Shown: in pieces, positions 1,139 through 33,984 of the stretch
Position numbering within the stretch: the stretch's first letter is position 1
How the letters are laid out: each line of letters begins with the position of its first letter
Virus record (IMG/VR): IMGVR_UViG_2534681936_000014
Coordinates: 1-35,002 of that record
Direction: 5' to 3' (one strand)
Length of the DNA stretch: 35,002 nucleotides
DNA from: a virus
Taxonomy: Duplodnaviria > Heunggongvirae > Uroviricota > Caudoviricetes
The notes under the pieces: generated by a model
What the model was told of the DNA's origin: nothing
Databases searched by the model: none
Seen by the model: the letters and a program-made list of their open reading frames with translations, nothing else
Translations under genes and position numbers: made by a program

Positions 1139-1693
1139 ATGAAAGAAGAATTAACCCTTACAGAAATTTCCCGTTTATACGGCTATTCATTGAATGGTGG
1201 CGCTAAGCGATGGATAGAAAGGGGATTGCCATTTAACACCAATACCCGCCGCGTGCCAGCCAAAGAAGGAACAGAATGGGTCTTGAAAAATATTATCAAC
1301 CCGCTTAAACAAACTTCTATCAAAGAACAAATCGATGTAGAGAAATTACGCCGTGAACGTGCTTTAGCAGATGCAGCCGAACGAGAGAACCAGGAAGCGA
1401 TGAACCTCCTGATTCCGGTCGGTTATGTAGAACAGGAGCTAGCTGAATATTGTGGGAAGGTGAAGCAGACTATCTTGCAGATTTGTACGATCGATGCTTT
1501 AGAAATTCTCGAATCTGCTACCGATCAGAAAACATTGAAGAATAAGCTAAGGGAGATCATCGAGCGTCGTTTAAATGAAGTAGGGGACTTGTTCGAAAAT
1601 GCTGATTTGGGAGAAGACGAGGAAGAAGAATTACCATTAATGGATGAACCGGAACAAGAACCAGAAGAAGACGATGAATTTGATGTGTCTTAA
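1139..1693 (+). CDS. HTH DNA-binding protein with acidic C-terminal tail; Nu1-like, possible terminase small subunit or early regulator
   Basis: 184 aa; N-terminal winged-HTH-like segment LTLTEISRLYGYSLNGGAKRWIERGLPF followed by ERALADAAERENQE, similar in architecture to lambda Nu1; own terminator at 1741-1773; lies 6 kb from the large terminase gene. Confidence 0.45.
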   Translation: MKEELTLTEISRLYGYSLNGGAKRWIERGLPFNTNTRRVPAKEGTEWVLKNIINPLKQTSIKEQIDVEKLRRERALADAAERENQEAMNLLIPVGYVEQELAEYCGKVKQTILQICTIDALEILESATDQKTLKNKLREIIERRLNEVGDLFENADLGEDEEEELPLMDEPEQEPEEDDEFDVS

Positions 1694-2369: not shown

Positions 2370-2395
2370 GGGACTCTTCGGAGTCCCTTTTTTTT
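2370..2395 (+). terminator. Rho-independent terminator (GGGACTC-TTCG-GAGTCCC then T8)
   Basis: Perfect 7-bp stem, TTCG loop, eight consecutive T; second of two tandem terminators 80 bp apart. Confidence 0.75.
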
Positions 2396-2636
2396 ATGCA
2401 ACAATTCGAAGTGTAAGTTTCTTATGTTGTGTAGGTTTAGTTTCATTTCGCCACTCAGGGAATACATGACCCATCATAACCGCATTAGTCTCATCAATCA
2501 GCTTTAAGGACTTTCTCAACGCCTTATTATCAGCTTTAAGAGTTTTAATCTCTGATTCCATCGCTACCATTCTTTCTTTCATTTTGGTAATTTCTAACAT
2601 CAGATTACCCAGAAATTCTTTGTTTTGATTCATCAT
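2394..2636 (-). CDS. Small coiled-coil protein (80 aa), unknown function
   Basis: ATG ATG start at 2636-2631 with GAGGGGTGA RBS; heptad-like sequence LEITKMKERMVAMESEIKTLKADNKALRKSLKL. Confidence 0.45.
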   Translation of the reverse strand: MMNQNKEFLGNLMLEITKMKERMVAMESEIKTLKADNKALRKSLKLIDETNAVMMGHVFPEWRNETKPTQHKKLTLRIVA

Positions 2637-2651
2637 AGATTCACCCCTCTA

Positions 2652-3653
2652 TTAAGCTGCGTATGCGTAGGCGCTGTAGTTGGTGTCGTAGATAGCGTCA
2701 TGCAGTGCCATCTGTGCTTCGCGGATCTCGTCTTCGTTTACTTCAATCTCTTCTTGTTCTTCTTCGGTATCTTCCCAAGTGGTTTTGAATTTAGCCATAA
2801 AGTTATTGCGCAGGGATTCAAAGTTAGTAACAGGTGCGGATTTTTCTTCAACCGGAACTACTACCGGATCAGCTTCTTTCTGTTCTTCCTGTTCTACTTT
2901 TTCACCGTTACCCCAGCGATAGTTAAGGAGTTCTTCCAGTTCTTCATCAATGGATTTTTCTTCAACTGCTTCAACTTCAACCGCTGCTACTTCGAAAGTG
3001 GTTTCCTGCGCTGCCAGTTCAGCTTTCAGAGATGCGTTTTCAGCTTCCAGTTCAGCAATGCGTGCTTTCAGTGCTTCAACTTCGGAAGATTCAACCACTG
3101 CAACTTCTTCTTTAACTTCTTCAACTACTACCGGAGCAACTTCTTTCTGTGCTTCTTTTTTGCAGAAGAAGGAGGAAGTAACCTGTAATGCGTGGTTGTA
3201 GAAGGAACCGCCTTTAGCGGTGTTAACAGTACCAGAAACATCCTTTACAGTGGATTCAGTAGCAACAGTACGGAAGCGTTTTGCGACTTCCTGGGTCTCT
3301 ACGCCGTATTCGTTACGCTTGCTCTTGTGATGCATTACAGCACGGAAGCCGGAAGCAGTTTTAACAACAGCGAGATAGTAAGTTTCATCGGCTTTAACAG
3401 CACGAGCGAAGCAATAAACGGATTCACCTTCTACCAGTGTAGGTTTAACGTGACGTTTGTCGAAACGGTTAGTGATCTGCCATTCAGCACCGTCTTTGAT
3501 GCCAGCATTCTGACGCATTTCGGTCAGAGTCTTACCGGATACTACTTCAAAGGATTTGTCTTGTTTGCTTGCTTTACCTTCCATGACGGTAATGTTCAGT
3601 TTGCCGTTGGATTTAATAAACAGGTTGAAGGTGATGCGCTTAGAATTTTTCAT
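2652..3653 (-). CDS. Hypothetical early protein, 333 aa, globular N-terminal domain plus strongly acidic coiled-coil C-terminal half
   Basis: ATG at 3653-3651 with AGGAG RBS; codon usage typical of highly expressed genes (CGT, CTG, GGT); C-terminal half rich in E/V/A with coiled-coil segment ALKARIAELEAENASLKAEL; no family recognised. Confidence 0.65.
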   Translation of the reverse strand: MKNSKRITFNLFIKSNGKLNITVMEGKASKQDKSFEVVSGKTLTEMRQNAGIKDGAEWQITNRFDKRHVKPTLVEGESVYCFARAVKADETYYLAVVKTASGFRAVMHHKSKRNEYGVETQEVAKRFRTVATESTVKDVSGTVNTAKGGSFYNHALQVTSSFFCKKEAQKEVAPVVVEEVKEEVAVVESSEVEALKARIAELEAENASLKAELAAQETTFEVAAVEVEAVEEKSIDEELEELLNYRWGNGEKVEQEEQKEADPVVVPVEEKSAPVTNFESLRNNFMAKFKTTWEDTEEEQEEIEVNEDEIREAQMALHDAIYDTNYSAYAYAA

Positions 3654-3769
3654 TTATAAATACTCCTGAATGCTGTGTTAGTTTTAATTGTTCATTTCAA
3701 GCCTCCTTTGCTGCAACAAGGGAGGCTTTTTATTTTTAAAGCCATCATATAATTCTCAGTGAAAGTGGA

Positions 3770-3949
3770 TTAACAAACTTGAACGTTAATCTTTATCTGA
3801 ATTTCGTATTTCTTCATTAGCTTATAGAATCCGCTTCTATCAATTCCTTCCTTCTTAAAGAAATTCTCGCCGCCTCGTTCAGTATCGCCATAAAAGCGTT
3901 TAGCAATATCAACAATCATTTCACGAGTAAACTTAACAGGTCTAGCCAT
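3770..3949 (-). CDS. Small HTH DNA-binding protein (Hin/resolvase-type HTH fold), member of a three-gene paralog family
   Basis: ATG at 3949-3947 with GAGGAA RBS (the ORF-track start at 3964 is a TTG); motif RPVKFTREMIVDIAKRFY...GIDRSGFYKLMKKY aligns with the 7015-7245 and 7275-7877 products. Confidence 0.5.
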   Translation of the reverse strand: MARPVKFTREMIVDIAKRFYGDTERGGENFFKKEGIDRSGFYKLMKKYEIQIKINVQVC

Positions 3950-4138
3950 AAGTAGATTCCTCAAATGTGGATTAATAAGGACAATAAAAAGAGCTTTTCG
4001 CCCTCGATACTTCTATTTATAAAAGTCATTTCAGAAAACCCTGTAAAACCACTGTATATCTGATCAGTGGGAGCACGAATTGCTAAAGAGAAGATTAATA
4101 ATTAATCAATTCGTACATTATTCAATCGAAAAGGCACT

Positions 4139-4172
4139 GTATGTTTAACCAGTGCCGTATGTGTTAACAGTG
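4139..4172. repeat. Imperfect tandem direct repeat, 2 x 16 bp (GTATGTTTAACCAGTG / GTATGTGTTAACAGTG), each containing a GTTAAC-like palindrome
   Basis: Read directly at 4139-4154 and 4157-4172 in the ORF-free region. Confidence 0.6.
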
Positions 4173-4306
4173 AATCAGGGGATTTTCAGAAGTGAACAAT
4201 CATTTCATGCATGTATTTATACACGAAAAAATCTTGCTTATCATCAATATGGGGATTGTTTCGAAAATTTCAACCCCTACCAACGAGAAAAAGTATAAAA
4301 TAATCC

Positions 4307-4320
4307 TTGACAGTTGTCAA
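4307..4320. promoter_or_regulatory. Perfect 14-bp palindrome TTGACAGTTGTCAA (operator-like; contains a TTGACA -35-like hexamer on both strands)
   Basis: Read directly; a related inverted repeat TTGTCAA-N6-TTGACAA occurs at 5702-5721. Confidence 0.45.
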
Positions 4321-4345
4321 TACACTTGACCTAAGCGAGAAATGA

Positions 4346-4517
4346 CTATCAAAATTTTTGTGTGAAAATGGCGGATAACGATTATCAACCTTTATAACCT
4401 ATTATAGCACGGCGACCTTTTGATAATTCTTTTTAAATCATGCATTTACAGCGATTTTTGGTGATTTTCCGGTTAAATAATATACAAGAATTTTCTATCA
4501 AAATTTTTGATGAAAAA
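4346..4517. repeat. Pair of 23-bp direct repeats (CTATCAAAATTTTTG[T/A]TGAAAA) 149 bp apart flanking an AT-rich segment with TTATCAA DnaA-box-like motifs
   Basis: Copies at 4346-4368 and 4495-4517 differ at 1-2 positions; GATTATCAAC (4380-4389) and TTGATAATTC (4421-4430) in inverted orientation between them. Confidence 0.55.
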
Positions 4518-4638
4518 CCTACACTACAAACCTACGCTTTAAAGGGATTGGCCTACACTACACTAGCCAGTAAACCTACACTATAACACCCTCAAACCTA
4601 CACTATGAAACCTACACACCTACACTAACCCTACACTT
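4518..4638 (+). repeat. Iteron-like array: 7 or more copies of CCTACACTA (variants CCTACGC, CCTACACACC, CCTACACTT) with irregular 10-30 bp spacing
   Basis: Copies read at 4518, 4531, 4552, 4575, 4597, 4611/4618 and 4629; all in one orientation; no ORF. Confidence 0.7.
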
Positions 4639-5211
4639 CAATCTCATAATTGTATGATCTTGAAAGACATTTCACCCCACAGACCATAGAATATAAAATT
4701 CGAACTAACGTTCTCCTTTTTGCTCGTTTTCTCTCACTACGTTCAAGAAAGATCTCGCAAAAAGAATACGGCGTAGCCGTGCGCGAAGCGCCCATCAACA
4801 CCTTCTAAGACCTGCAAGCAGGATTCGAAAGGGATTGGATAGTTCGCTTCGCTCACGTTCACGCCTACGGCGTTCACTCGCTTTTGAAAGGATTTTCTTA
4901 GAAAGGGATTTAATACTAGTTACTAACTGATTCTAGTAAACGAACGAAGTGAGTAACAATCACTTTCTAGAAAGGTATTGGTATCCCTTCGGGATTGCAA
5001 CCTTCGGTTGCTAAATTGCTTCCTGATTATTATTTCTCCAAAAGAAAGATTCTTATATTCTAAAGATACTTCTTCGTTTTGATGATGATTTAATCAAATC
5101 ATGAAGGAGGGCTTTGCCCGACTGAATACAATCACTCTTTTCATAATAACAAGAATTTTCTCTTTATAAATAATATTAGATTGATTCACTTTCTTTTAGA
5201 GGATTTCCACT

Positions 5212-5559
5212 ATGAACCATAAAATGACTACCACTACTCCTTTCATCCTGTTAGGTTTTGATGCTGATAGCTTCCACAATGACAAGTTAATGAAGATGTT
5301 CCGTGAACGTGGTTACAACATTCTTTTCAACTCTGATGAATCTCATTTCTCTAGTGCATGGTATGCGTTTTGCCGTAATAAGAAGCCGACCATTGTTGTT
5401 AACGTCTTCACCGATGAAGAACGCTTAAAGTACCAGAATCTACCAGCAATTATTGTTCGTGATGATCTGCCGTTTCAAGTCCGTTCCGGTGACATTGATC
5501 TGGGTAGCTTCGTTACTGTCTATGAACTGGATGAAGCAATGTTTAACTACGGCAAATAA
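5212..5559 (+). CDS. Hypothetical protein (115 aa)
   Basis: ATG at 5212 with AGAGGA RBS; the TAA stop is followed in frame by a 39-codon acidic extension (see findings). Confidence 0.5.
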   Translation: MNHKMTTTTPFILLGFDADSFHNDKLMKMFRERGYNILFNSDESHFSSAWYAFCRNKKPTIVVNVFTDEERLKYQNLPAIIVRDDLPFQVRSGDIDLGSFVTVYELDEAMFNYGK

Positions 5560-5947: not shown

Positions 5948-6045
5948 GATAAAAACTTCTTATAAATAAAATTGTTCCGGTGATGCTGCCGGAACTAGGA
6001 GGATCAATATCATTATCGCAAAACCGTTTAAGGGGAATTACTACT

Positions 6046-6879
6046 ATGAATACTGTTACTACTATGAATACTGCTGTTAAAACTGCTTCCGTGTCTCTGG
6101 TTGTTGATAACGAAGTTGCAAAAATGACTCTTCGTGAAATTGCCGACCTTATTGGAGTTCGTTTTTCAAACCTTGAAACTTCTATGAACCGACTGGTTGA
6201 ACGCCAAGTTATCCGAAAACCTGCAACGCAGAATTTCGAGAAAATCAATAACTTAGGGTTTGCTGTTACTGTTAAAGATTATGTGTTTGAGGGTGAGCAA
6301 GGTCGCTTAGATTCGATTGTCTTGATTGCTCAAAACGTACCGGAATTTACTCGCCAACTGGTTGACCGTTGGAATTATCTGGAAGAGAAACTGAAAACCG
6401 CCAATAATACTCCTGTTAACCCGTATGCAGACTTTGAAGAAACCGATTGGATCGAACTGGCATTAGATGAAAAACGCAAAAATAAAAAACTGATTGAGCT
6501 ACACATTCGCAAATCCGTAGATAGCCATTCTATGACACGTCTGTTAGGCGCTAAAAAGGGCGCTACGAAGGTTAAAGAAGCACTGACGGCCTTACGTACT
6601 GCTGGATACATTGAGCGCGTCTATGATGAAAATAACAAGCCGTGTGGGTATGTTGCTAATGACTCTTCTCTGTCTTTCTGCCGCATGAATGCTCACTACC
6701 AACTTGAGTTTACTGTTGATGTTCTTCCGGTGCTGGTTGAATTGGGCGTTTTGGAAGAAGAACAGAAAGCAACTCTTAAACTACCGCAGCCAAATAACAC
6801 TATTCTGATTCAAAACAAAGCTGCTAAACAGATTCGTGAATCAGGTAACGTAATTTCCCTTGTTGATTTTGGGATCTGA
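6046..6879 (+). CDS. Putative phage regulatory protein (Rha/antirepressor-like N-terminal HTH segment); function uncertain
   Basis: Internal ATG at 6046 with AAGGGGA RBS (ORF-track start 5980 is a GTG); segment MTLREIADLIGVRFSNLETSMNRLVERQ resembles Rha-type DNA-binding domains from memory. Confidence 0.45.
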   Translation: MNTVTTMNTAVKTASVSLVVDNEVAKMTLREIADLIGVRFSNLETSMNRLVERQVIRKPATQNFEKINNLGFAVTVKDYVFEGEQGRLDSIVLIAQNVPEFTRQLVDRWNYLEEKLKTANNTPVNPYADFEETDWIELALDEKRKNKKLIELHIRKSVDSHSMTRLLGAKKGATKVKEALTALRTAGYIERVYDENNKPCGYVANDSSLSFCRMNAHYQLEFTVDVLPVLVELGVLEEEQKATLKLPQPNNTILIQNKAAKQIRESGNVISLVDFGI

Positions 6880-7014: not shown

Positions 7015-7245
7015 TCAAATTCCTGTTGCTTCTACCATTTCACCGTCAACCTGAACAAAGAATTTCAAATCAACTTTATGGAGTGATTTGTAGAATTGAG
7101 CGATTGAAATACCGTGTTCACTCAATACTTGTTCTTTTTCGGCTTTACCTTTCGGCGCTTGATAGTACGCTTTTACAATCGCTGCCAGTTGTTCACGATT
7201 AAAACGGGCAGGGCGACCGCGAGTAGCTTTAGTAGTCATAGTCAT
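7015..7245 (-). CDS. Small DNA-binding protein: AT-hook-like RGRPAR arm plus Hin/resolvase-type HTH
   Basis: Likely ATG at 7245 or 7239 (ORF-track start at 7272 is a GTG); TRGRPARFNREQLAAIVKAYY...GISIAQFYKSLHK matches the pattern of the Hin DNA-binding domain (GRPRAI...GVSTLYRY) from memory. Confidence 0.55.
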   Translation of the reverse strand: MTMTTKATRGRPARFNREQLAAIVKAYYQAPKGKAEKEQVLSEHGISIAQFYKSLHKVDLKFFVQVDGEMVEATGI

Positions 7246-7274
7246 TTTCTCCAAATTAAAGTGAATGTTCACCT

Positions 7275-7877
7275 TTATTTAGAGGACTTACATTTTATCG
7301 GAAAAAGTTCTCCATCGTCAACCGACATAAAGAACTCTGCCTTAATCCCGTACTTCTTCAACCGTGAATAATATGTACCCCGACTAATATCAACCTTGCG
7401 CAGCACTTCGAAGAACTCTTTAGGATTCCTGTAATAGTGGCTATATCGCACGTTAGCGAGTTCTACAAACAATTCCCTTGTATCACCATAGCCTTTCTTG
7501 AAAGCCACGTTACGATAGCGTGTAATGGCATGATTCAATCTCTTCTGTTTAAGCACTTCCCTGATCGGTGTCCACTGCAACCGATAGATCGGACCGTCAT
7601 CCACTCGATAATAACGCTTGATATCAAAATCAAACCATTCACGGACTCGCTGAAACTCTGTCTGTGATGTTCGGTGCTTCTTAAAGAAGTTGTGAATATC
7701 TGTATATCCCTGATCGCGATACAACTCTATTAAAATTTGCTTCGCTTCCTCGCGACTAAAGCCGGATGTTGTGTAATCAGTCTTCTTGTGATGGTGCTTA
7801 ACTGGCAAACGATATTCATGATCGGTACAAGACAAGGCTAATTCTAATTCATCTCTTTCTTGCTGATTAATTAGCAT
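7275..7877 (-). CDS. Protein with two tandem copies of the same Hin-like HTH module (200 aa)
   Basis: ATG at 7877 with AAAGGGGG RBS; contains [29 protein letters not shown] and [20 protein letters not shown]...[13 protein letters not shown], both similar to the 3770 and 7015 products. Confidence 0.55.
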
Positions 7878-7962
7878 ACAACCCCCTTTGATTAATACCC
7901 GTATTTATCAAAATATCAACAATTTAATAAATACCTTCCTATTTCGTAATGAGGGTAATTAC

Positions 7963-9870
7963 ATGAAACTGATTTCTAATAAGGCAAAATTAAAAAAGAT
8001 TCTCAGAAATGCAGCCAAATATATTACGCCACCGCCTAAACTCCTTCCGTCTGAATGGTGCGAAGCTAATATGGTGCTGGTAGATGGTCCTCAAGCTGGG
8101 GATAAAGTTAAATTGTTGTCATTCCAGAAAGGTATGATTGATGCTCCTTTCCTTGAGAACAAGAAAAAGTATGTCCTGATGACCAGTGCGCAGATCGGAA
8201 AAACTACCATCCTAAACGGTATCCTGTTTAACCAGATGGCTAACGATCCATGCAATATGATTATCGGACAATCAACCGCTAAAGAAATGTCTCAATATCT
8301 CGCTGGTAAGATCCGACCGTCTATCGAAGCATGTGATGCATTAAAAGACGTGGTTACAGACAAGAATGATCGCAATGCAGTTAACAACAATAACCAACTC
8401 CAGCTAAAAACGAATCACTTCCTGTACATGGTATCGCTTACCAGTCCATCAACCCTACGCGGTAAGACCGCAAAGGTTGGATTACTTGACGAAATCGATG
8501 CTGCCACAGCCTCAGAAGAAGGTGATCCGGTGGCACTGGCTGCTAACCGTTTAACTACCTTTGGCGATGAAGGTCGATTAGTCGTATCCAGTACCCCGAC
8601 CAGTAAGCTGGGAAGCATTAACCAGCAATGGTTATCAAGCGATATGCGTATGTTTTTTGTTCCGTGTCCTCATTGCGGGGAACACCAGGTGATCGAGTGG
8701 GAAAACGTACAGTTTGAATGGCGTAACATCGATGGTAAGAACTTACCCGATCCTGATACCGCTCGTTATATTTGCCCCCACTGTAAGAACGCATGGACCG
8801 AAGGGGAACGAATCAGGGCAGTAGCACAAGGCGAGTGGAGAGCAACCCGTGAAAGTGAAGTAGCCGGATTCTGGATCAGTCGTCTGTATTCACCTTTCAG
8901 CACGATCCGCGCTTGTGTGGTTGATTTTAGTCATGCGTGGCAATCCTTTGATTTACAATCATTTTATAACACCGTATTAGGCAAGGTATACGACGATCAG
9001 GACACGGCAGTAGAAGCAAATGAACTGGAACAACTCAAAACAGATGTTTCTATCGAGAATATCCCTGATGACGTGATTTTCTTGTGCTCAGGAATTGACC
9101 AGCAATTAGACCGCGCAGAGTCTACCATCTTAGGTGTAGCGAAAGATAAGGTTTACATTCTGGATCACCGCAGCTTTTACGATCATAACTGTGAACGATA
9201 TGAATCACCTGTTTGGGATCGTCTGGTTAACTTCAAGAAAACCAAATTCTATAACGTTAATGGTGAACGTGTGCCAATGCTCGCCAGCTTCCTTGATACA
9301 TCGAACGGTCGATTCACTCAAGCCGGATACCGTATTTGCGGCAAGTGGAAGAACCTACACGCTATCAAGGGTAGTTCATCTGGTAATGCTCCAGTAATTC
9401 CGGTTAAACCTACCCGCACAGGTGGTCATGAATTGCTTATGTTGGGTGTTAACGTTGGTAAATCCGCTGTTCGTGAAATGCTGGTTAGAAACCTGAAAGA
9501 CAATCCTCACATCGGCTTAGAAATATCAGAAACCGTTCCTGATGATTATCTCGATCAGCTTTTGAGTGAATCCATCAAGCGTACTACTACAGGTGTGCGT
9601 TGGGTGAAAAATCCAGGTAGTACCCGAAACGAGGCTCTCGACTGTCTGGTTTATAGCTATGCTGCTTCTCGCTACGTCCTTTCAAAAATGTCATGGGATA
9701 AACTCATTGCAATGAAAGACAGCTTAAACCGTGTTGTCGAAGAATCCGTAGAAGCTCCTAAATCGCAATCTGACGAGCAAATCGAAGAAACTAAGCCAAT
9801 CACACGACCGCAACGTCAAAACATCGCCAGACGCCCAAATAGAGGCCGTAGCTGGGTAACATCGTTCTAA
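7963..9870 (+). CDS. Terminase large subunit (GpA-like)
   Basis: 635 aa from ATG 7963 with GAGGGTAA RBS (ORF-track start 7888 is a TTG); Walker [12 protein letters not shown]; Cys-rich zinc-ribbon-like segments CPHCGEH...CPHCKNAW; size and gene order match a lambda-type large terminase. Confidence 0.88.
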
Positions 9871-14451: not shown

Positions 14452-14857
14452 TAATATGCCTAGACTGAAAATCAAACGCGCCTTGCAGGATATTATCGAA
14501 CAAGATTTAGGTCTGGCTTTAAACGTAGAACAAACTCAGCAAGGCTTTAGTGATGACGTGGTTTGTTGGATTACCGGAATGAATGAGACTTATACGCGTG
14601 TTCGTGGTGGTAATGCAATGCAAGCTGAATGCGTTATCGAAATGCAGTTATATTCTCAGATTCATGAAACGAAAATTCATGAGGGTATTTGCCAGATAAT
14701 CCAGATTCAGCCGGATAACCCACGTTTTAAAGATTTGGGCTTCGCTATTTCAGATATCACTCCAGTAGCTTCTAATACCGATTATGACGATGATTCTAGT
14801 GATGGGGGTATCGTTGGGACACTTAGCCTTAAATTTTCTTATGTAGCGCGTTTTTAA
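14435..14857 (+). CDS. Putative head-tail joining / tail completion protein (140 aa)
   Basis: ATG at 14435 with AGGGGG RBS, overlapping the upstream gene by 17 nt (the ORF-track start at 14354 lacks an RBS); positional assignment. Confidence 0.5.
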   Translation: MLATVNNMPRLKIKRALQDIIEQDLGLALNVEQTQQGFSDDVVCWITGMNETYTRVRGGNAMQAECVIEMQLYSQIHETKIHEGICQIIQIQPDNPRFKDLGFAISDITPVASNTDYDDDSSDGGIVGTLSLKFSYVARF

Positions 14858-15773: not shown

Positions 15774-18700
15774 ATGCAATCAATCCAATTTAAACGAACT
15801 AATGTTTCTGGCAAAAAACCAACGCCGGAACAATTACAGGTCGGTGAGGTAGCAATCAACCTTAAAGACCATGTTATTTTTACCAAAGACCGAGATCATG
15901 AAGTAGTTCAAATCTCTGTTTCTCCTGAAACTCACGCGGCACTAGAATCTAAAGTTGATGCTAACAAACAAGAATTGGATAGCACAATTGCAGTAAATGA
16001 CCGCAATATTCACGCTAAAGTAGATGAAATTAAACAAACTACTGATTCTACTATCGCAGCAAATCATGCAGAAATTAACAATAAAGTTGATGTAATTAAA
16101 CGCGAAACCGACGCGACAATCGAAGCTAATAAAAATAAAGCTGCTTCCGATCTTGCTGGTGTTAAAGCTGAATTGTCGGATACCATCAACGCTAATAAAA
16201 ATGCGGCTGCTGTAGCAACTCAGGAACTGGACACCCGCATCAATAAAAAAGTTGATGATATTAAATCCCGTACTGATGCAACCATCGCAAGCAATCACAA
16301 AGCAATCAATGACAAAGTTGATTTGATTAAGGCAGAAACTGACCGCACTATCGCAGCAAATCAAGCCTATGCGGAAAATCAGTTAACTGACACCTACAAT
16401 AACCTTACTGGTGTGATTGCAGCTAATAAGCAAGAGGCAGCGGATAGCGTCGCAGCATTAACCCGTGATGTTGAAGCCAAAAATACAGCAATTCATAGCA
16501 AAATTGACAACAACAAGGTTTACACTGATTCTGAATTGGCACGCTTAGAAAGCCGTATTGATGCAGCCGATGGATCTGCTGATGGCAAGTACATCAAAAA
16601 ACACGTAAACACTTATACTGATGGTTATTTGCTGTCTAAGACCGCAAACTATTTTGATGATCCAAATGCGCGTAATCTTGATTACTTTGGTGCATTCCGC
16701 ATGAATGACCTGGCGGGTCATATTGCAATGATCTTGCATGTTCCGCATCCATCTGGTGTTAATCATGCTCGTGGCTTTGAGTTCACTTATGGGTCTAATC
16801 CACATGCTACTGTAAGAACATACGGCTATGATGAATTAGGTAATTTGTCATATTCTCACCGCATGTATCATGAAGGCGATAAACCTACTCCGGCTGAAAT
16901 TGGCGCATATTCGAAAGCAGAAATTGACCGACTGTTCCAGAAGACGCTTAATTTTGGGATCGAGGGTGGTTGGTTTAAACTCGGTAGTTTAACACTGCCA
17001 CAGCAACACGGTCGTAGTGCTAAGATCCGCTTAGTTGGTGGTAACGGTTATAACGTCGGGATGAATGGACAAGCCAATATTATCGAATTGGTGATTCGAT
17101 GCGGCAACAATAGCCCGAAAGGTGTTGTATTCAATGCTTATTATAGCATCTGGTATCACGAACAACATTTTTGTGCAATTCCTACCGATGGTGATAATTA
17201 CGATCTTTACGCTTACTACGGTGCACATACAGGATTTGTTTTAGCAGAATATCAAGTTTCTTCCGGTGGTGTTTCTTTAAACCTGTTGGATACTCCTGAA
17301 TATCTGGGTGGTGAAAAACCTGTTGCAGATGAAATTTTTGATGCTCTTAACATTTCATCGTTCAATAACTTTAGCAACCGTGGGACGTTAAATTTTGCTG
17401 GAAACCATCAAGGCCAATATGACATTGAGCATATGAACGAACAACAAACTAACAGCAAAAAGATGTTGCGTCGCTTCCGTAGTTCTGCTCCTGCCACTAT
17501 CTGGCACGAAAGTGTTGATGACCAAAATTATCGTCTTGCTACTGGTTATGACGATGTAAACCAACAATTATTGCTTTCGGCTGCAACCGGGTTACATGTC
17601 AAGAGATTAACATTGGATGGCGGTGTTGGTAATGCCGGTATTGACATTCGTCGAGGACCAAACGAATCAAGCCATTTTAATTTTATGGATTATCGCACTG
17701 GTCAAGATGTTCGTAATGGCTGGTTTGGTTTTGGTGATTTGACGACCAAAGATTTTATTTGGTGGAACGATAACGGCCAAAACTCGATAAACCTGATTGA
17801 AGATGGCGAGTTGCATATTACTGGTGGTAAAGGCCAGAAAATTGTAATGAATAGCGAAGTTGCATTATCCGAAAATGCTCGTTTGGCTGTCAAAGGCGGT
17901 AACTATGGTTTGATATTACGCAATGATGGTTCTAGCTTCCATATTCTTACTACCGATTTAAAAGATTCTTTTGGTAATTGGAATAATCGCAGACCATTCA
18001 GTTATGATTTTGCGGACGGTGGATTATATTTAGGTGGTACTGAAACTGCTCGTTGTTTGCATCTTGGAATTGATGGTAGCACTCGTCTCGAAGACAACCT
18101 GTTCTTTAAAGCTGGTTCTCGTCAATCTATGGACTATATGGAACTCGTCCATTGGGGTGCAAGCAATACAGGTCGAAATAACGTTTTAAGTCTTCGTGAC
18201 TCAAAAGGATTTTTAGCCGAATTTGAACGTCTATGGGATAATACTACCAAAAACACCTTCTTCGGGAAAATGAAAATTAATCGTGGATCTGATGCAATTA
18301 TCATGAATGCCGAAAGTGGTGATTCGTCTGTATATTTGTTGGGTACGTGTGCTGACAACAACAACTGGTATATTGGTAAAGGCGGTGGTGATAATGGATT
18401 AGCGTTCTATAGCTATGCTACTAATGCCGCGATAAATCTTACGAACGCTGGGGATATTGCATTAAGTCCAAAAGGCGTCGAAATGGTTCATGTTAATAAC
18501 GCTCGATTATATGTTCATGGTGAACGTTGGACCGCTAGTCAACCAGGTGATTGGGGTAATCAGTGGCGAGTGGAAGCGCCAATATTCGTCGATCATGGCT
18601 ATGTTGGACAAGACTGTTATTATCCGATTGTTAAAGCAAGAAGTTTAATCACCAATCAAGGGTATACAACTGCCGTCGATTTTGGTATGCGTCGTATCCC

Positions 18701-19199
18701 TAACAATTGGGGACAAGCAATTATTCGTGTTGGATCTGCGGAAAACTCACCTGATAACGGACACCCTCAAGCTGTATTTGAGTTCCATCACGATGGGTTC
18801 TTTTACACGCCGGGTAACGGTAGCTTTAACGATGTGCATATTCGATCTGATGAACGTCTTAAGATCAACAAGGAAGAATTGGAAGAAGGTGCGCTGGATA
18901 AATTAAACAGCTTAACCGTATATTCCTACGATAAAGTTAAATCACTTTCTGATGATACAGTGGTTGGACGCGAATTAGGTGTCATTGCTCAAGATGTGGA
19001 AAAAGTTATGCCGGAAGCTGTGCACGTTTGCAGCGATGGAGATACCGAAAATCCAGGAGAAATTAAAACTATTTCTGTTTCTAGTATCAATGCTCTTTTC
19101 GTGAAAGCCTTTCAGGAATTAACGACTAAGTATGATGCGATGAACGAAGAGTTGAAAGCTGTTAAAGCTGAACTTGCGGCTATTAAATCCTGTAAATGA
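15774..19199 (+). CDS. Tail fiber protein with C-terminal S74-type intramolecular chaperone (self-cleaving) domain
   Basis: 1141 aa; N-terminal shaft built from about 22-aa repeats (KVDxIKxxTDxTIAAN); C-terminal region ...SDERLKINKEELEEGALDKLNSLTVYSYDKV...GVIAQDVEKVMPEAVH... matches the signature of endosialidase / T5 L-shaped-fiber chaperone domains from memory. Confidence 0.85.
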   Translation: MQSIQFKRTNVSGKKPTPEQLQVGEVAINLKDHVIFTKDRDHEVVQISVSPETHAALESKVDANKQELDSTIAVNDRNIHAKVDEIKQTTDSTIAANHAEINNKVDVIKRETDATIEANKNKAASDLAGVKAELSDTINANKNAAAVATQELDTRINKKVDDIKSRTDATIASNHKAINDKVDLIKAETDRTIAANQAYAENQLTDTYNNLTGVIAANKQEAADSVAALTRDVEAKNTAIHSKIDNNKVYTDSELARLESRIDAADGSADGKYIKKHVNTYTDGYLLSKTANYFDDPNARNLDYFGAFRMNDLAGHIAMILHVPHPSGVNHARGFEFTYGSNPHATVRTYGYDELGNLSYSHRMYHEGDKPTPAEIGAYSKAEIDRLFQKTLNFGIEGGWFKLGSLTLPQQHGRSAKIRLVGGNGYNVGMNGQANIIELVIRCGNNSPKGVVFNAYYSIWYHEQHFCAIPTDGDNYDLYAYYGAHTGFVLAEYQVSSGGVSLNLLDTPEYLGGEKPVADEIFDALNISSFNNFSNRGTLNFAGNHQGQYDIEHMNEQQTNSKKMLRRFRSSAPATIWHESVDDQNYRLATGYDDVNQQLLLSAATGLHVKRLTLDGGVGNAGIDIRRGPNESSHFNFMDYRTGQDVRNGWFGFGDLTTKDFIWWNDNGQNSINLIEDGELHITGGKGQKIVMNSEVALSENARLAVKGGNYGLILRNDGSSFHILTTDLKDSFGNWNNRRPFSYDFADGGLYLGGTETARCLHLGIDGSTRLEDNLFFKAGSRQSMDYMELVHWGASNTGRNNVLSLRDSKGFLAEFERLWDNTTKNTFFGKMKINRGSDAIIMNAESGDSSVYLLGTCADNNNWYIGKGGGDNGLAFYSYATNAAINLTNAGDIALSPKGVEMVHVNNARLYVHGERWTASQPGDWGNQWRVEAPIFVDHGYVGQDCYYPIVKARSLITNQGYTTAVDFGMRRIPNNWGQAIIRVGSAENSPDNGHPQAVFEFHHDGFFYTPGNGSFNDVHIRSDERLKINKEELEEGALDKLNSLTVYSYDKVKSLSDDTVVGRELGVIAQDVEKVMPEAVHVCSDGDTENPGEIKTISVSSINALFVKAFQELTTKYDAMNEELKAVKAELAAIKSCK
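15952..16380 (+). repeat. Intragenic tandem repeats, about 66-bp period, encoding the fiber shaft
   Basis: Successive units starting near 15952, 16018, 16084, 16249 and 16315 all begin AAAGTxGATG...ATTAAA...ACxGA. Confidence 0.6.
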
Positions 19200-24299: not shown

Positions 24300-25073
24300 A
24301 TGCGAAAATTCCATTACGTTTATCACACCACTATTAAATCTAATCGCTCTGGTAAAATCTATCATTACGTCGGAAAAAGAACAACTACAAATCTAGACGA
24401 TGGATATGTGGGGTCGGGTAAAGTTATTAAAATGATGAAGCGTAAAAATAAAGAATCAGAAACCCCGATATATGAATTTGAAGTTGTTCGCTCAAAATTG
24501 TTTGATACTGCCGAGGAAGCGTTTGAATGTGAAATTCTGTTAGTGGAGGCAGCACGCGAAAAATGGGGGCGTGGTGTATGTCTTAATATTGCTCCTGGTG
24601 GTGTCGGTGGTTTTGATGGTGGTGAACATCACCCACTGTACGGAAAGAAACATAAGCCAGAAACAATCGAGAAATTTAGAAAGAACAACGCAGGTGAAGG
24701 AAACCCGATGTTTGGACGGGTAAGCCCAAAACGAGGAAGGAAGATAACTAATCCAGAAACGTTAGCTAAAATGTCCGCTGCAATGAAAGGCGCTAATAAT
24801 CCTCGATACGGCGCAATAGTCACCGAAGAAACACGCGCAAGAATTAGTAAGGCTTTATCTGGTCGAAAGATTACCGATCCTGTAGAAAAGGCTAACAGAA
24901 CTAAAGCAATTAGGGAATCGAAAGGTCAAGCATGTTGGCAACATTACGATGAAATTCGTCGTGTGTGGATCGAAAACGGTAAGCCCGGCGCGGCAAGATT
25001 ACGAACAATCATGATTGGCTTAGGCCATCCAAAATATGATCTTCGTAGAATGTGCGAAGACTTCAAGAAATAA
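24300..25073 (+). CDS. GIY-YIG homing endonuclease with NUMOD3-like repeats
   Basis: 257 aa; N-terminal HYVYHT...GKIYHYVGKRTT...GYVGSGK and FECEIL align with the I-TevI catalytic-domain pattern (GIYQIKN...VYVGSA...FECSIL) from memory; three G-x-x-H/NP-x-[YF]G-x-x-x-x-x-E-T-x-x-K-[IM]S repeats (HPLYGKKHKPETIEKF, NPMFGRVSPKRG...PETLAKMSAAM, NPRYGAIVTEETRARISKAL). Confidence 0.8.
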   Translation: MRKFHYVYHTTIKSNRSGKIYHYVGKRTTTNLDDGYVGSGKVIKMMKRKNKESETPIYEFEVVRSKLFDTAEEAFECEILLVEAAREKWGRGVCLNIAPGGVGGFDGGEHHPLYGKKHKPETIEKFRKNNAGEGNPMFGRVSPKRGRKITNPETLAKMSAAMKGANNPRYGAIVTEETRARISKALSGRKITDPVEKANRTKAIRESKGQACWQHYDEIRRVWIENGKPGAARLRTIMIGLGHPKYDLRRMCEDFKK

Positions 25074-31827: not shown

Positions 31828-33507
31828 TTAAATTCCAAATTCCTGTAATGGACCTGGTATTTCTTCTTCTGGTTTCCAGTTCTTATCTGTCAGCATGTCT
31901 AAACATGGATGCAGAACAAGCCCGTTACTCTCCAGAATCTGCCTATCATTGATAGTCTTCAAATCAACGAAGATCCGGCCTTTCCTCGGTCCTCTTGAAT
32001 TTTCTATTACAACTCTCTGGGTCTTGCCATCGATGTATTCCAGTACAAACAAGTTTTTGTACTTGTCAATCCTGCTACACCCGATCCGTTTTAGAGCTTG
32101 CTTAATCTTAAACCGGACCTTAATGCGATCCTCGTTGTAAACATCTTCTAAATCAAATTCTGCGAGCTTCTCCCAGCCTTGAGAGTCAACAGAATACATT
32201 TCCTCTTCTGCCATCTTAATTTGATTGTAGAGTGTTTCACGCTCGCTATTGAGGGTAGTAATCTGATCGGCTAGCTCCTTCGTTGCTCCTGTCATAGCAG
32301 AAAGGGTAATCAGGTTATCAATCTTGCGTGATATTTCATCAATCTGTACTTTCAAAGCCGGAACCGGATTAGCCTTATCTTCAGCAATCCAGATTTTATC
32401 AGCCAGCAATTGCAATACAGCTTTCTCTAATTGGTCGCCGCGAAAACTCCAGTTTGTATGCACACATTCAATACGACTAGAGCGCATTGCATCGCATGAA
32501 TAACGATATTGGTTAGGCCGTCTGTTTGTTCCTTTCACCTTAACCATAGCGGAACCGCAATGTTCACATTTCAATAGACCAACACCACTAAGCAAGGGAA
32601 TAGGTTTAACTTCTTCTTTGTCTCCAAAGTTACATGCTCTAACACCAATGCTTTTCTTAAGGTGATAAAACTCAGCGTCATCTAGCACACGAGGATAATA
32701 ATCCTTTAACTCATACTTAACGCCATCTACAGAGATTTCCTTGATACCAATCAAAGCGCGGGTATGGAACAACCTTTCAATCATTGCCCGTGACCAGTTT
32801 GAATGCCTCTTGTGACTTGCGGCTGGTGGTGGTGTGTATGTCGCGTTAAGGTGATCCAGTATCTCGGCGGTTGACCGTCCATTCCTGCGTAATTCCACAA
32901 CTTCCTGAACAATAGGGAAGAAGACCGGATGAGGAAGCACATAACCAGATGTGGTATCAGTCCACCACATATTCTTTCCAATTTCCTCGATTGCAACAGC
33001 CGGATTTTGTGGATTTTCTTGATGAGCTTTAATCTTAATCAGTGCGCTTGAGTTAGTACGATTGCGCTTAGTCTGGCTTTCCTCATTACCACGGATGAAT
33101 AAAAGGATGGAGAACATCAGGTCCATCGGGTTAGCGGTAACAGTATCCAGCGAGTAGATCTTGTTATCCATGCCAGTAACAATGGTTATCCCCCTACGGA
33201 TGATTGAAAGGAATAACTCCTGCGCACTGACAATATCGGCACGGGATAAACGGTCCAAGTTTTCGATGAATAGCCAGCTACCAACAGGAACGGATCTACC
33301 TATTGCATCAAGGAAACGAGATAGCGCCCCTGTTTTGGAGTTAGCACCCTTAAACGCAGATACACCCAGATCCTGATAATCATTTACCAGTTCAAGGTCA
33401 TACTTTACCGCAATCTCTCTAGCCATCCTGATTTGTCGTTCATAACTCGAACCATCATTCTGACGCATAGACGAGAAACGAATATACGAATACAGTTTAG
33501 TTTTCAT
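31828..33507 (-). CDS. Large serine recombinase (resolvase-type catalytic domain, recombinase domain, zinc ribbon and coiled-coil C-terminal region)
   Basis: About 559 aa from ATG 33507; N-terminal YSYIRFSSMRQNDGSSYERQ with the catalytic Ser in the position typical of serine recombinases; Cys pairs (CEHCGS...CDAMRSSRIEC) and coiled-coil region downstream. Confidence 0.85.
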   Translation of the reverse strand: MKTKLYSYIRFSSMRQNDGSSYERQIRMAREIAVKYDLELVNDYQDLGVSAFKGANSKTGALSRFLDAIGRSVPVGSWLFIENLDRLSRADIVSAQELFLSIIRRGITIVTGMDNKIYSLDTVTANPMDLMFSILLFIRGNEESQTKRNRTNSSALIKIKAHQENPQNPAVAIEEIGKNMWWTDTTSGYVLPHPVFFPIVQEVVELRRNGRSTAEILDHLNATYTPPPAASHKRHSNWSRAMIERLFHTRALIGIKEISVDGVKYELKDYYPRVLDDAEFYHLKKSIGVRACNFGDKEEVKPIPLLSGVGLLKCEHCGSAMVKVKGTNRRPNQYRYSCDAMRSSRIECVHTNWSFRGDQLEKAVLQLLADKIWIAEDKANPVPALKVQIDEISRKIDNLITLSAMTGATKELADQITTLNSERETLYNQIKMAEEEMYSVDSQGWEKLAEFDLEDVYNEDRIKVRFKIKQALKRIGCSRIDKYKNLFVLEYIDGKTQRVVIENSRGPRKGRIFVDLKTINDRQILESNGLVLHPCLDMLTDKNWKPEEEIPGPLQEFGI

Positions 33508-33526
33508 ACCATTTCCAAACAAAAAC

Positions 33527-33570: not shown

Positions 33571-33984
33571 TTAAAGAATTTCACGGCAGCTAATCAGGGA
33601 ATAAGACGTATCACCTTTTTTAACATCAAATATAGGCGCGCCATCAACAGAATGCAGATACTTGATGTAGGATTTACCATCTTCGGAACCATAATATTCT
33701 TCTTTCTCGTTCTTATCTTCTTTCAATTTAGGGCTTTTGATTGTCTTATCATATACCGGATCGTTGAAAGCAAATTGACTATTATCATCATTCACGCGAA
33801 CTTTCACACCGATAAAACCACGATATTTTCCAGACGGTGCATGATAATAACGGTCGCCATCACGAAGATATTGTGTATCATCTCCTTTATGTTCGAAGTA
33901 GGAATTACACACATAATAGGTATTAGCATTTGCAGCACCAACCAAACCCAGAGCAAGAACAACACCAGCGATAATCTTTTTCAT
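33571..33984 (-). CDS. Secreted/periplasmic protein (137 aa), unknown function
   Basis: ATG at 33984 with AAGAGGAA RBS; signal peptide MKKIIAGVVLALGLVGAANA. Confidence 0.6.
   Translation of the reverse strand: MKKIIAGVVLALGLVGAANANTYYVCNSYFEHKGDDTQYLRDGDRYYHAPSGKYRGFIGVKVRVNDDNSQFAFNDPVYDKTIKSPKLKEDKNEKEEYYGSEDGKSYIKYLHSVDGAPIFDVKKGDTSYSLISCREIL

Follow-up and report, generated by a model that had tools for sequence, protein, structure and literature searches.

A control region with putative LexA operators and phased direct repeats paired with the ORFan protein o333 in an Escherichia coli prophage: a tentative SOS-gated replication origin

The gap, its repeats and the o333 protein

The stretch of DNA analyzed here, 35,002 bp of the IMG/VR virus record IMGVR_UViG_2534681936_000014 (hereafter the window), occupies exactly the interval that separates the halves of a disrupted hicB gene and is therefore a complete prophage. 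Its only large non-coding stretch, positions 3965-5211, separates a leftward operon (o59, o333 and o80) from a rightward operon beginning with o115/o155 (Table 1). A preliminary description of the window had called this gap an origin-like regulatory hub devoid of credible open reading frames (ORFs). The absence of ORFs was confirmed: the longest one does not exceed 56 aa and RefSeq annotates nothing in 3950-5223. The two longest small ORFs are broken by a 2-nt indel in a relative (L005) and were for this reason rejected as genes. A comparable gap of 1223-1368 bp lies at the equivalent place in every relative examined (15 loci), and in two more distant loci it measures 1208 and 1529 bp. Comparison of these sequences firmly supports the gap as a putative control region comprising SOS operators, a strong leftward promoter and phased direct repeats that would be functionally paired with o333.

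The direct repeats (iterons), an array already noticed in the preliminary description, occupy the middle of the gap. The sequence CCTACACT occurs six times on the plus strand within 4518-4637 and seven times in the whole window, compared to 0.43 copies expected, and none of 100 shuffles reached seven. The copies share a single orientation and are spaced by 11, 22 and 22 bp, besides intervals of 34, 5 and 18 bp; close matches form no other cluster in the genome. Counting the relatives, this position is occupied by at least four types of repeat. Type 1 (AAACCTACACTA) is that of the window, with at least seven copies; type 2 (TTTTTGCCCCTGAAA) is present in 5-9 copies, for instance in L007 and L021; type 3 (TCCCCG) reaches approximately 13-20 copies in L015; and type 4, in L018, combines two distinct families, TCCCCGGTATTAG (approximately seven copies) and (GA)TGTACAAG (approximately 11 copies). 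In all four types the repeats point in one direction and are mostly spaced by 10-11, 20-22 or 41-43 bp. Hence the arrangement by which an iteron origin is commonly judged, at least three helix-phased direct repeats in the same orientation, exists in the window, and types 2 to 4 have the same geometry.

Two arrays are composite. In L007 (3962-4000), the type-2 array is preceded by two to three type-1 iterons, and the type-1 array of the Salmonella locus (L133) contains two copies of TTGCCCC(T/C)GAA. Judged by their sequences, both appear to be traces of recombination within arrays.

The preliminary description had proposed a comparison with related phages, asking whether the repeats change together with a particular DNA-binding protein. 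This comparison, made with 25 IMG/VR loci including the window and with two more distant loci (27 in total), revealed that the repeats are replaced by other families and co-vary with one specific protein, that of o333. Among the 25 IMG/VR loci, all 11 CCTACACT (type-1) arrays accompany the N-domain of the A1 protein (98-100% identical) and all 12 TTGCCCCTGAA (type-2) arrays that of A2 (97-100% identical), while the type-3 locus and the type-4 locus each possess an A protein of their own plus a second paralogue, B. Over the 27 loci, repeat type and N-domain type correspond one to one; all loci with type-1 iterons possess o333 (A1), and loci of the other types lack it. The Salmonella locus and L135, which have a different chromosomal insertion site, have kept 6-8 CCTACACTA copies in an otherwise diverged gap, and their A protein is 66-69% identical overall (74-81% by BLASTP local alignment).

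The gene between the A gene and the iterons, o59, exists in at least four alleles that are independent of the iteron type, one allele class being found with types 1, 2 and 3. Likewise, both versions of the promoter/leader module were found with types 1 and 2. Since these intervening elements reassort independently, the pairing of the repeats with o333 is more than linkage. TerS, o155, o299, o85 and o200 do not track the iteron type either. The best reading of these data is that the o333 protein and the iterons form one specificity cassette, which would be exchanged as a unit between related prophages.

The first 135 residues or so of the o333 protein are type-specific and the first 175 are basic (pI 9.7). 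Next comes a coiled coil, and the C-terminal half, which ends with ...AYAYAA, is acidic (pI 4.1). In A1 and A2, the N-terminal 175 residues or so have pI values of 9.3-9.7 and the C-terminal halves of 4.1-4.9. The first 135 residues or so of the two proteins cannot be aligned and BLASTP aligns them only from residue 137 or thereabouts onward, but they share the C-terminal motif LHDxxYxTN(Y/F)S. The N-domain is predicted, with low confidence, to be mostly beta-strand. An exhaustive search of 1.84 billion representative proteins yielded only three true relatives of o333, and a profile search gave almost only near-identical E. coli proteins. No match was obtained in Pfam, PHROG, NCBIfam, PADLOC or the PDB apart from, at most, coiled-coil noise, and tblastn against phages likewise returned nothing or only such noise.

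Table 1. Positions of the elements of the gap and of selected genes (window coordinates).
Feature	Position	Strand	Remarks
TerS, small terminase	1139-1693		
o80	2394-2636	-	small coiled-coil protein ending ...LTLRIVA; type-1 loci only
o333 ("A" protein)	2652-3653	-	333 aa; candidate iteron-binding protein
o59	3770-3949	-	small basic protein, first gene of leftward operon; ORF list, RefSeq coding sequence
Small hairpin followed by T-run	3989-4005	-	terminator- or attenuator-like; leader just upstream of o59; terminator scan
LexA box 1 (putative)	4050-4069		CACTGTATATCTGATCAGTG; 15.2 bits, second-best match in window
LexA box 2 (putative)	4135-4154		CACTGTATGTTTAACCAGTG; 20.0 bits, best match in window, above all 200 shuffles
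LexA box 3 (putative)	4153-4172		TGCCGTATGTGTTAACAGTG; 10.9 bits; 2-nt overlap with box 2
Leftward sigma-70 promoter	4292-4320	-	TTGACA-17-TATACT; 11/12 consensus positions, best in region
14-bp palindrome	4307-4320		TTGACAGTTGTCAA; perfect
AT-rich module	4330-4514		25-32% GC; holds both 23-bp direct repeats, core TATCAAAATTTTTG
23-bp direct repeats	4338-4360, 4487-4509		149 bp apart; 87% identical
Iteron array	4515-4641	+	at least 7 direct copies of (A)AACCTACACTA, one strand; CCTACACTA array
Type-specific right half of cassette	4642-4875		approximately 235 bp beyond iterons
Promoter-like sites	4664-4699	+	
GC-rich dyad	arms 4770-4790 and 4845-4865		
Small hairpins in dyad	4768-4780; 4861-4873		ACGGC-GTA-GCCGT; ACGCC-TAC-GGCGT
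Terminator-like site	4780-4768	-	hairpin followed by T-run; terminator scan
Second repeat family	4824-4981	+	(ATCACTTT)nnGAAAGGGATT(GG), 4-5 copies; kept in all cassette types
Two adjacent hairpins	4985-5012	+	CTTCGG loops; other hairpin at that place in types 3 and 4
RB49-like stretch	5024-5098		75 bp; counterpart in RB49-like (Krischvirus) phages is repeated intergenic DNA, 81-82% identity; least stable 200 bp of the window begins here
TATAAATA before o115/o155	5165-5172	+	-10-like element 39 nt upstream of the start; invariant in all relatives
TATAAATA copies	starts 1701, 4014, 4214, 5165, 5961, 34019		
o115/o155	5212-5559	+	first gene of rightward operon
TerL, large terminase	7888-9870		lambda-type gpA
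Large serine integrase	31828-33522		

The flanks of the array and the surrounding prophage

The left third of the gap was scanned for LexA operators with an ad hoc matrix of E. coli SOS boxes, whose training sites score 12.6-24.1 bits; the whole window was scored, and the maximum in 200 shuffles was 18.6 bits. Three putative boxes within 4050-4172 match the form of the LexA operator, the 20-bp palindrome taCTGTatatatatACAGta. Boxes 2 and 3 correspond to what had been described as a 2 x 16 bp tandem repeat with GTTAAC cores (4139-4172). This repeat is present but imperfect, since GTTAAC occurs in the second unit only and the first reads GTTTAAC, and it was not reported by Tandem Repeats Finder. 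By its sequence, it is rather a pair of overlapping LexA boxes resembling a colicin-style double SOS box. Box 3 is weakened in the window by a CTG to CCG change (4155-4157), whereas in the relatives it reads TGCTGTAT...ACAGTG and scores 15.8-17.8 bits. Box 1 lies 85 bp to the left of the double box, and the 85-86 bp spacing between boxes 1 and 2 is kept in the relatives. E. coli relatives with iterons of types 1, 2 and 3 retain all three boxes ahead of their o59 homologue; box 1 is conserved in L002, L006, L022, L021 and L015 and weaker in L011 (9.5 bits). In the Salmonella locus (L133) and in L135, boxes are visible by eye.

The best promoter of the region reads leftward, and its -35 element is the right half of the perfect palindrome, whose presence at the position given in the preliminary description was verified. 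By arithmetic, about two perfect 14-bp palindromes are to be expected by chance in 35 kb; the weight of this one therefore lies in its overlap with the -35 element and in the conservation of its half-sites among relatives as TTGAC-N4-GTCAA, the centre being variable. Counterparts of the promoter match the consensus at 12 of 12 positions in L007 and at 10 of 12 in L018. A leader of approximately 335 nt extends from the promoter to o59 and carries the LexA boxes, two minus-strand copies of TATAAATA and the small hairpin with its T-run. The stem of this hairpin has a different sequence at the equivalent place in L007, and further stem variants exist in other relatives. The leader of the Salmonella locus is shorter and places the double box approximately 45 nt downstream of the promoter, as read by eye.

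The element TATAAATA, which is identical to the consensus of T4 late promoters, occurs seven times in the window compared to 2.6 expected copies, a number that no shuffle reached. Five copies lie, properly oriented, 34-265 nt upstream of early-region genes, namely o59 (twice), o155, o299 and a gene for a 137-aa protein at 33984, and those preceding o155 and o59 are conserved in relatives. The structural operon contains none. These elements may be activator-dependent sigma-70 promoters or may respond to T4-type phages.

Adjoining the array on its left is an AT-rich module with the two 23-bp direct repeats that had been recognized before. It could be an unwinding element or a site for a host factor, and some relatives of iteron types 1 to 4 have kept it beside their array.

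To the right of the iterons, the stretch 4642-4875 is almost invariant among type-1 loci with flanks differing by 10-20%; type 2 has a diverged version of it, and types 3 and 4 have other sequence in its place. From approximately 4875 rightward, all types share the second repeat family (ATCACTTT..GAAAGGGATT), of which one further copy resides inside the iteron array at 4541, as well as the RB49-like stretch, the least stable 200 bp of the window (5025-5224) and the invariant TATAAATA. The counterpart in L018 of the two adjacent hairpins was called as a terminator-like site on the plus strand. Together, the conserved putative LexA operators, the best promoter match, the promoter-like elements that diverge toward the operons on either side, the hairpins and the terminator-like elements support the earlier designation of the gap as a master regulatory region.

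A recurring module was seen in this part of the gap, in which a TCGCTTCGCTCA-like motif precedes a stem of 4-5 bp closed by a TAC (or GTA) loop, the stem sequence varying. It is found at 983-1014 (upstream of the TerS gene), 4768-4791 (inverted) and 4843-4873. Outside the window, two copies in inverted orientation exist in an intergenic region of RB49 (L024), at approximately 990-1030 and 1150-1180, and the bare motif occurs in phage DCP80 (L001) at 700-916. A search of IMG/VR for CGCTTCGC-N(3-12)-CTACGG was too unspecific to be interpreted.

The first rightward gene contains an in-frame TAA at 5557-5559; the same frame, read onward to 5640, gives the acidic C-terminus of its relatives (155 aa). 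Because of this stop codon and of the CTG to CCG change in LexA box 3, it is suggested that this copy of the prophage has begun to decay. In the leftward operon, o80 is possibly a remnant of the B paralogue carried by types 3 and 4. Its similarity to the C-terminus of the B proteins, which end with ...RPTLRLVA, is weak (E = 0.17). The o59 protein is paralogous to o85 (7015-7272, minus strand) and to the C-terminus of o200 (7275-7877, minus strand). The three share the motif GI..S.F.KL.KKY.IK, o59 being highly polymorphic and o200 conserved, and they may constitute a family of DNA-binding regulators.

Apart from the terminases and the integrase, the prophage encodes a portal protein, a protease-capsid fusion, an M15 endolysin and a tail of the siphovirus type, the distal tail fibre of which is T4-like. 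It has no close cultured relative, the best TerL match being 43% identical. A literature search for prophages inserted at hicB found nothing relevant, and a scan of GTDB genomes with a TerL profile gave only terminases of at most 31% identity and no related loci. Over the 1.6 kb compared (3700-5300), the window is 100% identical to the chromosomes of E. coli FDAARGOS_946 and of the O55:H7 strain DEC5A. A type-1 or type-2 cassette is carried by 51 of 5426 complete E. coli genomes (about 1%); all 51 matches are chromosomal, and the plasmid collection contained none. E. coli UTME-9 (NZ_CP157110.1) harbors a type-1 and a type-2 family prophage together (3412756-3413136 and 2804944-2805428), and four other genomes gave two matches each to the type-2 probe.

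Further observations concern the relationship with T-even phages. The DNA of 1-780 (a gene for an LprI-family secreted protein) and of 15774-19199 (the distal part of the 1141-aa tail fibre) is 81-89% identical to that of RB49-like and other T-even phages, a similarity indicating that genes have passed between virulent T4-type phages and the temperate lineage studied here. The 141-kb GenBank record PQ671644 (Escherichia phage DCP80), classified as a T4-type Gaprivervirus, starts with a lambda-type terminase/portal/tail module of at least 22 kb (1-23611), a distant relative of the prophage (TerL 43%), and continues with T4-like genes; the record may be an assembly chimera or else a hybrid of an uncommon kind. 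Elsewhere in the window, a homing-endonuclease-like gene (24300-25073; NUMOD3 domain, phrog_314) lies within the tail gene cluster, and a perfect 18-bp tandem duplication (TTACTACTATGAATACTG x 2, 6038-6073) at the very start of a Rha/Ant-like gene leads to a repeated TTMNT in the N-terminus of the protein. ARAGORN called a 91-nt tRNA-Glu(ttc) at 14622-14712 (minus strand), which overlaps head-tail ORFs on the opposite strand and is probably a false positive.

Replication origin, immunity switch and other possible explanations

The regulatory part of the hub proposed in the preliminary description is supported by the putative LexA operators, the promoter and the hairpins, while its origin part is plausible but unproven. 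Our preferred reading, which we hold tentatively and with a little less than even confidence, is that the gap is an SOS-gated early control region whose iterons, bound by the ORFan o333, form the replication origin of the phage. Binding of LexA, binding of o333 to the iterons and origin function are inferred here from elements, conservation and a protein-repeat pairing that were seen directly or by comparison. In the left third, the sigma-70 promoter (4320 to 4292) and the TATAAATA elements downstream of it would fire leftward into o59, o333 and o80. LexA would keep this operon repressed until DNA damage relieves it, because its transcript crosses a leader with three putative LexA operators. 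In the middle, the type-specific basic N-domain of o333 would bind the phased CCTACACTA iterons, of which there are at least seven. Easily melted DNA is available on both sides of the array (4417-4516 and 5025-5224, the latter being the least stable 200 bp of the whole window), and the nucleoprotein complex could start replication there, with the acidic C-terminal half of o333, and the motif shared between types, recruiting replication proteins of the host. In the right third, the dyads, the hairpins, the second repeat family and the TATAAATA promoter element would serve the rightward operon and perhaps the origin.

Several properties argue for an origin: the iteron geometry, the easily melted DNA at its flanks, a variable recognition domain joined to a conserved C-terminal motif, the confinement of the iterons to one array, and the variable distance between array and promoter. 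Moreover, the phage needs an origin and has no other candidate.

A number of observations weigh against this reading. No homology ties o333 to replication, and the AlphaFold models of the protein are unusable (mean predicted local distance difference test score 45.7 from the single sequence and 45.5 from an alignment of eight sequences). No gene for a helicase, loader or primase was found in the prophage. The TTATCAA motifs, which the preliminary description had regarded as similar to DnaA boxes, did not stand up: TTATCCACA with at most one mismatch has no match inside 4000-5200, the nine matches in the whole window correspond to chance (9.8 expected), and the inverted copy TTGATAA (4420-4426) is not conserved in relatives. 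The AT-rich module is absent from its place next to the iterons in L005/L007-type relatives, and 4417-4516 (25-30% GC) is only the sixth least stable 100 bp of the window. The cumulative GC skew contains no origin signal. It has its minimum near 8-9.5 kb and its maximum near 31 kb, the ends of the rightward structural operon, and thus follows the direction of transcription. As to the SOS gate, the LexA boxes are situated at +113 to +235 of the main promoter, inside the leader and with no recognizable -35/-10 beneath them, and the matrix that scored them was an ad hoc one. Finally, cassettes of a protein and its site that can be swapped are just as characteristic of immunity regions.

The last point leads to the main rival of the origin, in which the iterons and the A protein are a transcriptional switch or an immunity determinant that silences or activates neighbouring promoters, either the leftward one or those at 4664-4699. 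The diversity of the cassettes would then be hetero-immunity between related prophages. We judge this to be somewhat unlikely. It would agree with the promoters that flank the array, which in L007 abuts the leftward TTGACA -35, and with the extension of the type-specific cassette over approximately 235 bp on the right of the array, where promoter-like sites occur. The co-residence of a type-1 and a type-2 prophage in UTME-9 is as expected for distinct immunity or incompatibility groups, and it is compatible with an origin as well, just as the co-variation of repeats and protein resembles both iteron origins with their initiators and immunity determinants. However, repressor operators do not usually comprise 7-20 sites in the same orientation, phased at approximately 11 or 22 bp. 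The distance between array and leftward promoter is not conserved (approximately 195 bp in the window, 0 bp in L007), which argues against simple promoter control by the A protein. A lysogeny repressor is also not expected downstream of LexA boxes, and the switch would leave the phage still without any candidate origin or initiator. None of the window's proteins matched a known replication protein or a CI-type repressor, and for about ten early-region proteins no family with known replication or repressor function was found.

It is improbable that the right half of the gap (approximately 4700-5020) functions chiefly as RNA, be it a structured non-coding RNA or a long 5' leader, with the hairpins acting at that level. 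The minus strand of this part folds at -109.6 kcal/mol (z = -7.0, compared to z = -2.4 for the plus strand), the hairpins with CTTCGG loops are present, and the minus-strand hairpin with T-run in the dyad has similar arrangements, detected by eye, in types 2 to 4. However, the asymmetry of the fold was not reproduced in L007, L015 or L018, the reason why an RNA gene at 4700-5020 is not claimed. Besides, Rfam gave no match, either in the window at the gathering threshold or, with the cutoff relaxed to E <= 1, in 3900-5300, a convincing minus-strand promoter was not found, the scan called no minus-strand terminators there in L018 or L007, and the iterons would be left unexplained.

A shade more improbable is a packaging site within the gap, in which the lambda-type (gpA) terminase would cleave the GC-rich dyad (4768-4873) as its cos site and the small terminase would bind the nearby repeats. 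The gap does lie between the TerS and TerL genes. The motif GCGCGAAGCGCC / TCGCTTCGCTCAC is common to types 1 and 2, with TerS proteins 88-100% identical, and replaced in types 3 and 4 (TerS approximately 51%), and the DCP80 record starts with a 1.3-kb ORF-free stretch with TTCGCTTCGCTCATG repeats just upstream of TerL. On the other hand, a similar module of motif plus hairpin is also located upstream of TerS (983-1014) and in RB49, a phage that packages by headful, and the iterons do not follow TerS. Types 1 and 2 differ in their iterons yet possess TerS proteins of 88-100% identity; recognition by the terminase is thereby excluded for the iterons, and the GC-rich dyad remains a candidate. 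Least probable by far is that the array acts like a centromere, serving for partition or anchoring through a coiled-coil adaptor in the manner of the parC/ParR systems of plasmids, since the long arrays of direct repeats phased at 10-11 bp (up to approximately 13-20 copies in types 3 and 4) and the coiled coil of A stand against the lack of a ParA-, ParM- or TubZ-like NTPase among the prophage genes, an exclusively chromosomal occurrence in complete E. coli genomes with no match in the plasmid collection, and a large serine integrase on the element, so that such a site is unlikely.

Returning to the origin, a bolder version is that o333 and B are a new class of initiators which, with their swappable iterons, would be the entire replication apparatus of a LexA-switched phage lineage without a known replication gene. 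We regard it as clearly unlikely. Also more speculative is the idea that the TATAAATA elements and the RB49-like DNA let the prophage respond to infection by T4-type phages. None of the early genes of this prophage family has a known function, and the gap would mark the place where decisions on lysis, lysogeny and replication fall. If o333 is an initiator, it would establish a new family of origin-recognition proteins and extend the exchange of origin-specificity cassettes well outside the lambdoid phages; if it is an immunity factor, it would be a new kind of repressor using long phased arrays. The four natural protein/repeat pairs are a ready-made specificity experiment, and in either case the conserved triple LexA operator would be a clear example of the direct SOS wiring of a prophage.

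Comparison with known systems

The right third of the gap recalls the PeSL cassettes of RB49/phi1 T4-type phages, which consist of an early promoter plus a stem-loop (PMC2839356). The 75-bp stretch with 81-82% identity to RB49-like intergenic DNA directly follows two stable stem-loops. By contrast, these 75 bp contain no consensus sigma-70 promoter on either strand of the window, while in L007 a 3-nt insertion in this stretch is accompanied by a 10/12 promoter match. Furthermore, the genes flanking the match in RB49 are on the opposite strand relative to it.

Plasmid centromeres bound by ParR or omega-type proteins also consist of many short direct repeats spaced at about one helical turn, a likeness that is clearest in types 3 and 4. 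They differ from the gap by their partition NTPase, and the cassettes are part of an integrated prophage. Moreover, the A protein, with approximately 330 aa and a large N-domain, is not a small ribbon-helix-helix protein.

Among LexA-controlled systems, colicin operons possess double SOS boxes and prophages of the Gifsy and 186 types possess antirepressor genes under LexA control. In common with these, the prophage has putative boxes of the canonical form CTGT-N8-ACAG, two of which overlap by 2 nt; they are conserved ahead of an early operon, and no CI-like self-cleaving repressor is recognizable in its genome. The differences are that the boxes are placed in a long leader and not over an obvious -35/-10, and that the operon encodes a putative DNA-binding specificity protein in place of a recognized antirepressor, the Rha/Ant-like gene belonging to the other operon.

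The closest parallels are the iteron origins with a cognate initiator, such as ori-lambda with the O protein of lambdoid phages, the origins of Staphylococcus aureus pathogenicity islands (SaPI) and phage-inducible chromosomal islands (PICI) with Rep, and iteron plasmids, for instance P1 oriR with RepA, and R6K. What these origins and the gap have in common are repeats in the same orientation phased at approximately 11 or 22 bp with AT-rich DNA alongside, a cis-encoded protein in which a variable domain changes with the repeats and another part is conserved, and the exchange of the protein/repeat pair as a specificity module between relatives. What separates them is that no similarity could be detected between o333 and O, Rep, RepA or Pi, that o333 contains no NTPase motif, and that there are neither DnaA boxes nor a gene for a partner helicase or loader. 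In addition, the iterons are located outside the gene, 0.9-1.9 kb away and across another gene and a promoter. Both this arrangement and the o333 protein family are new.

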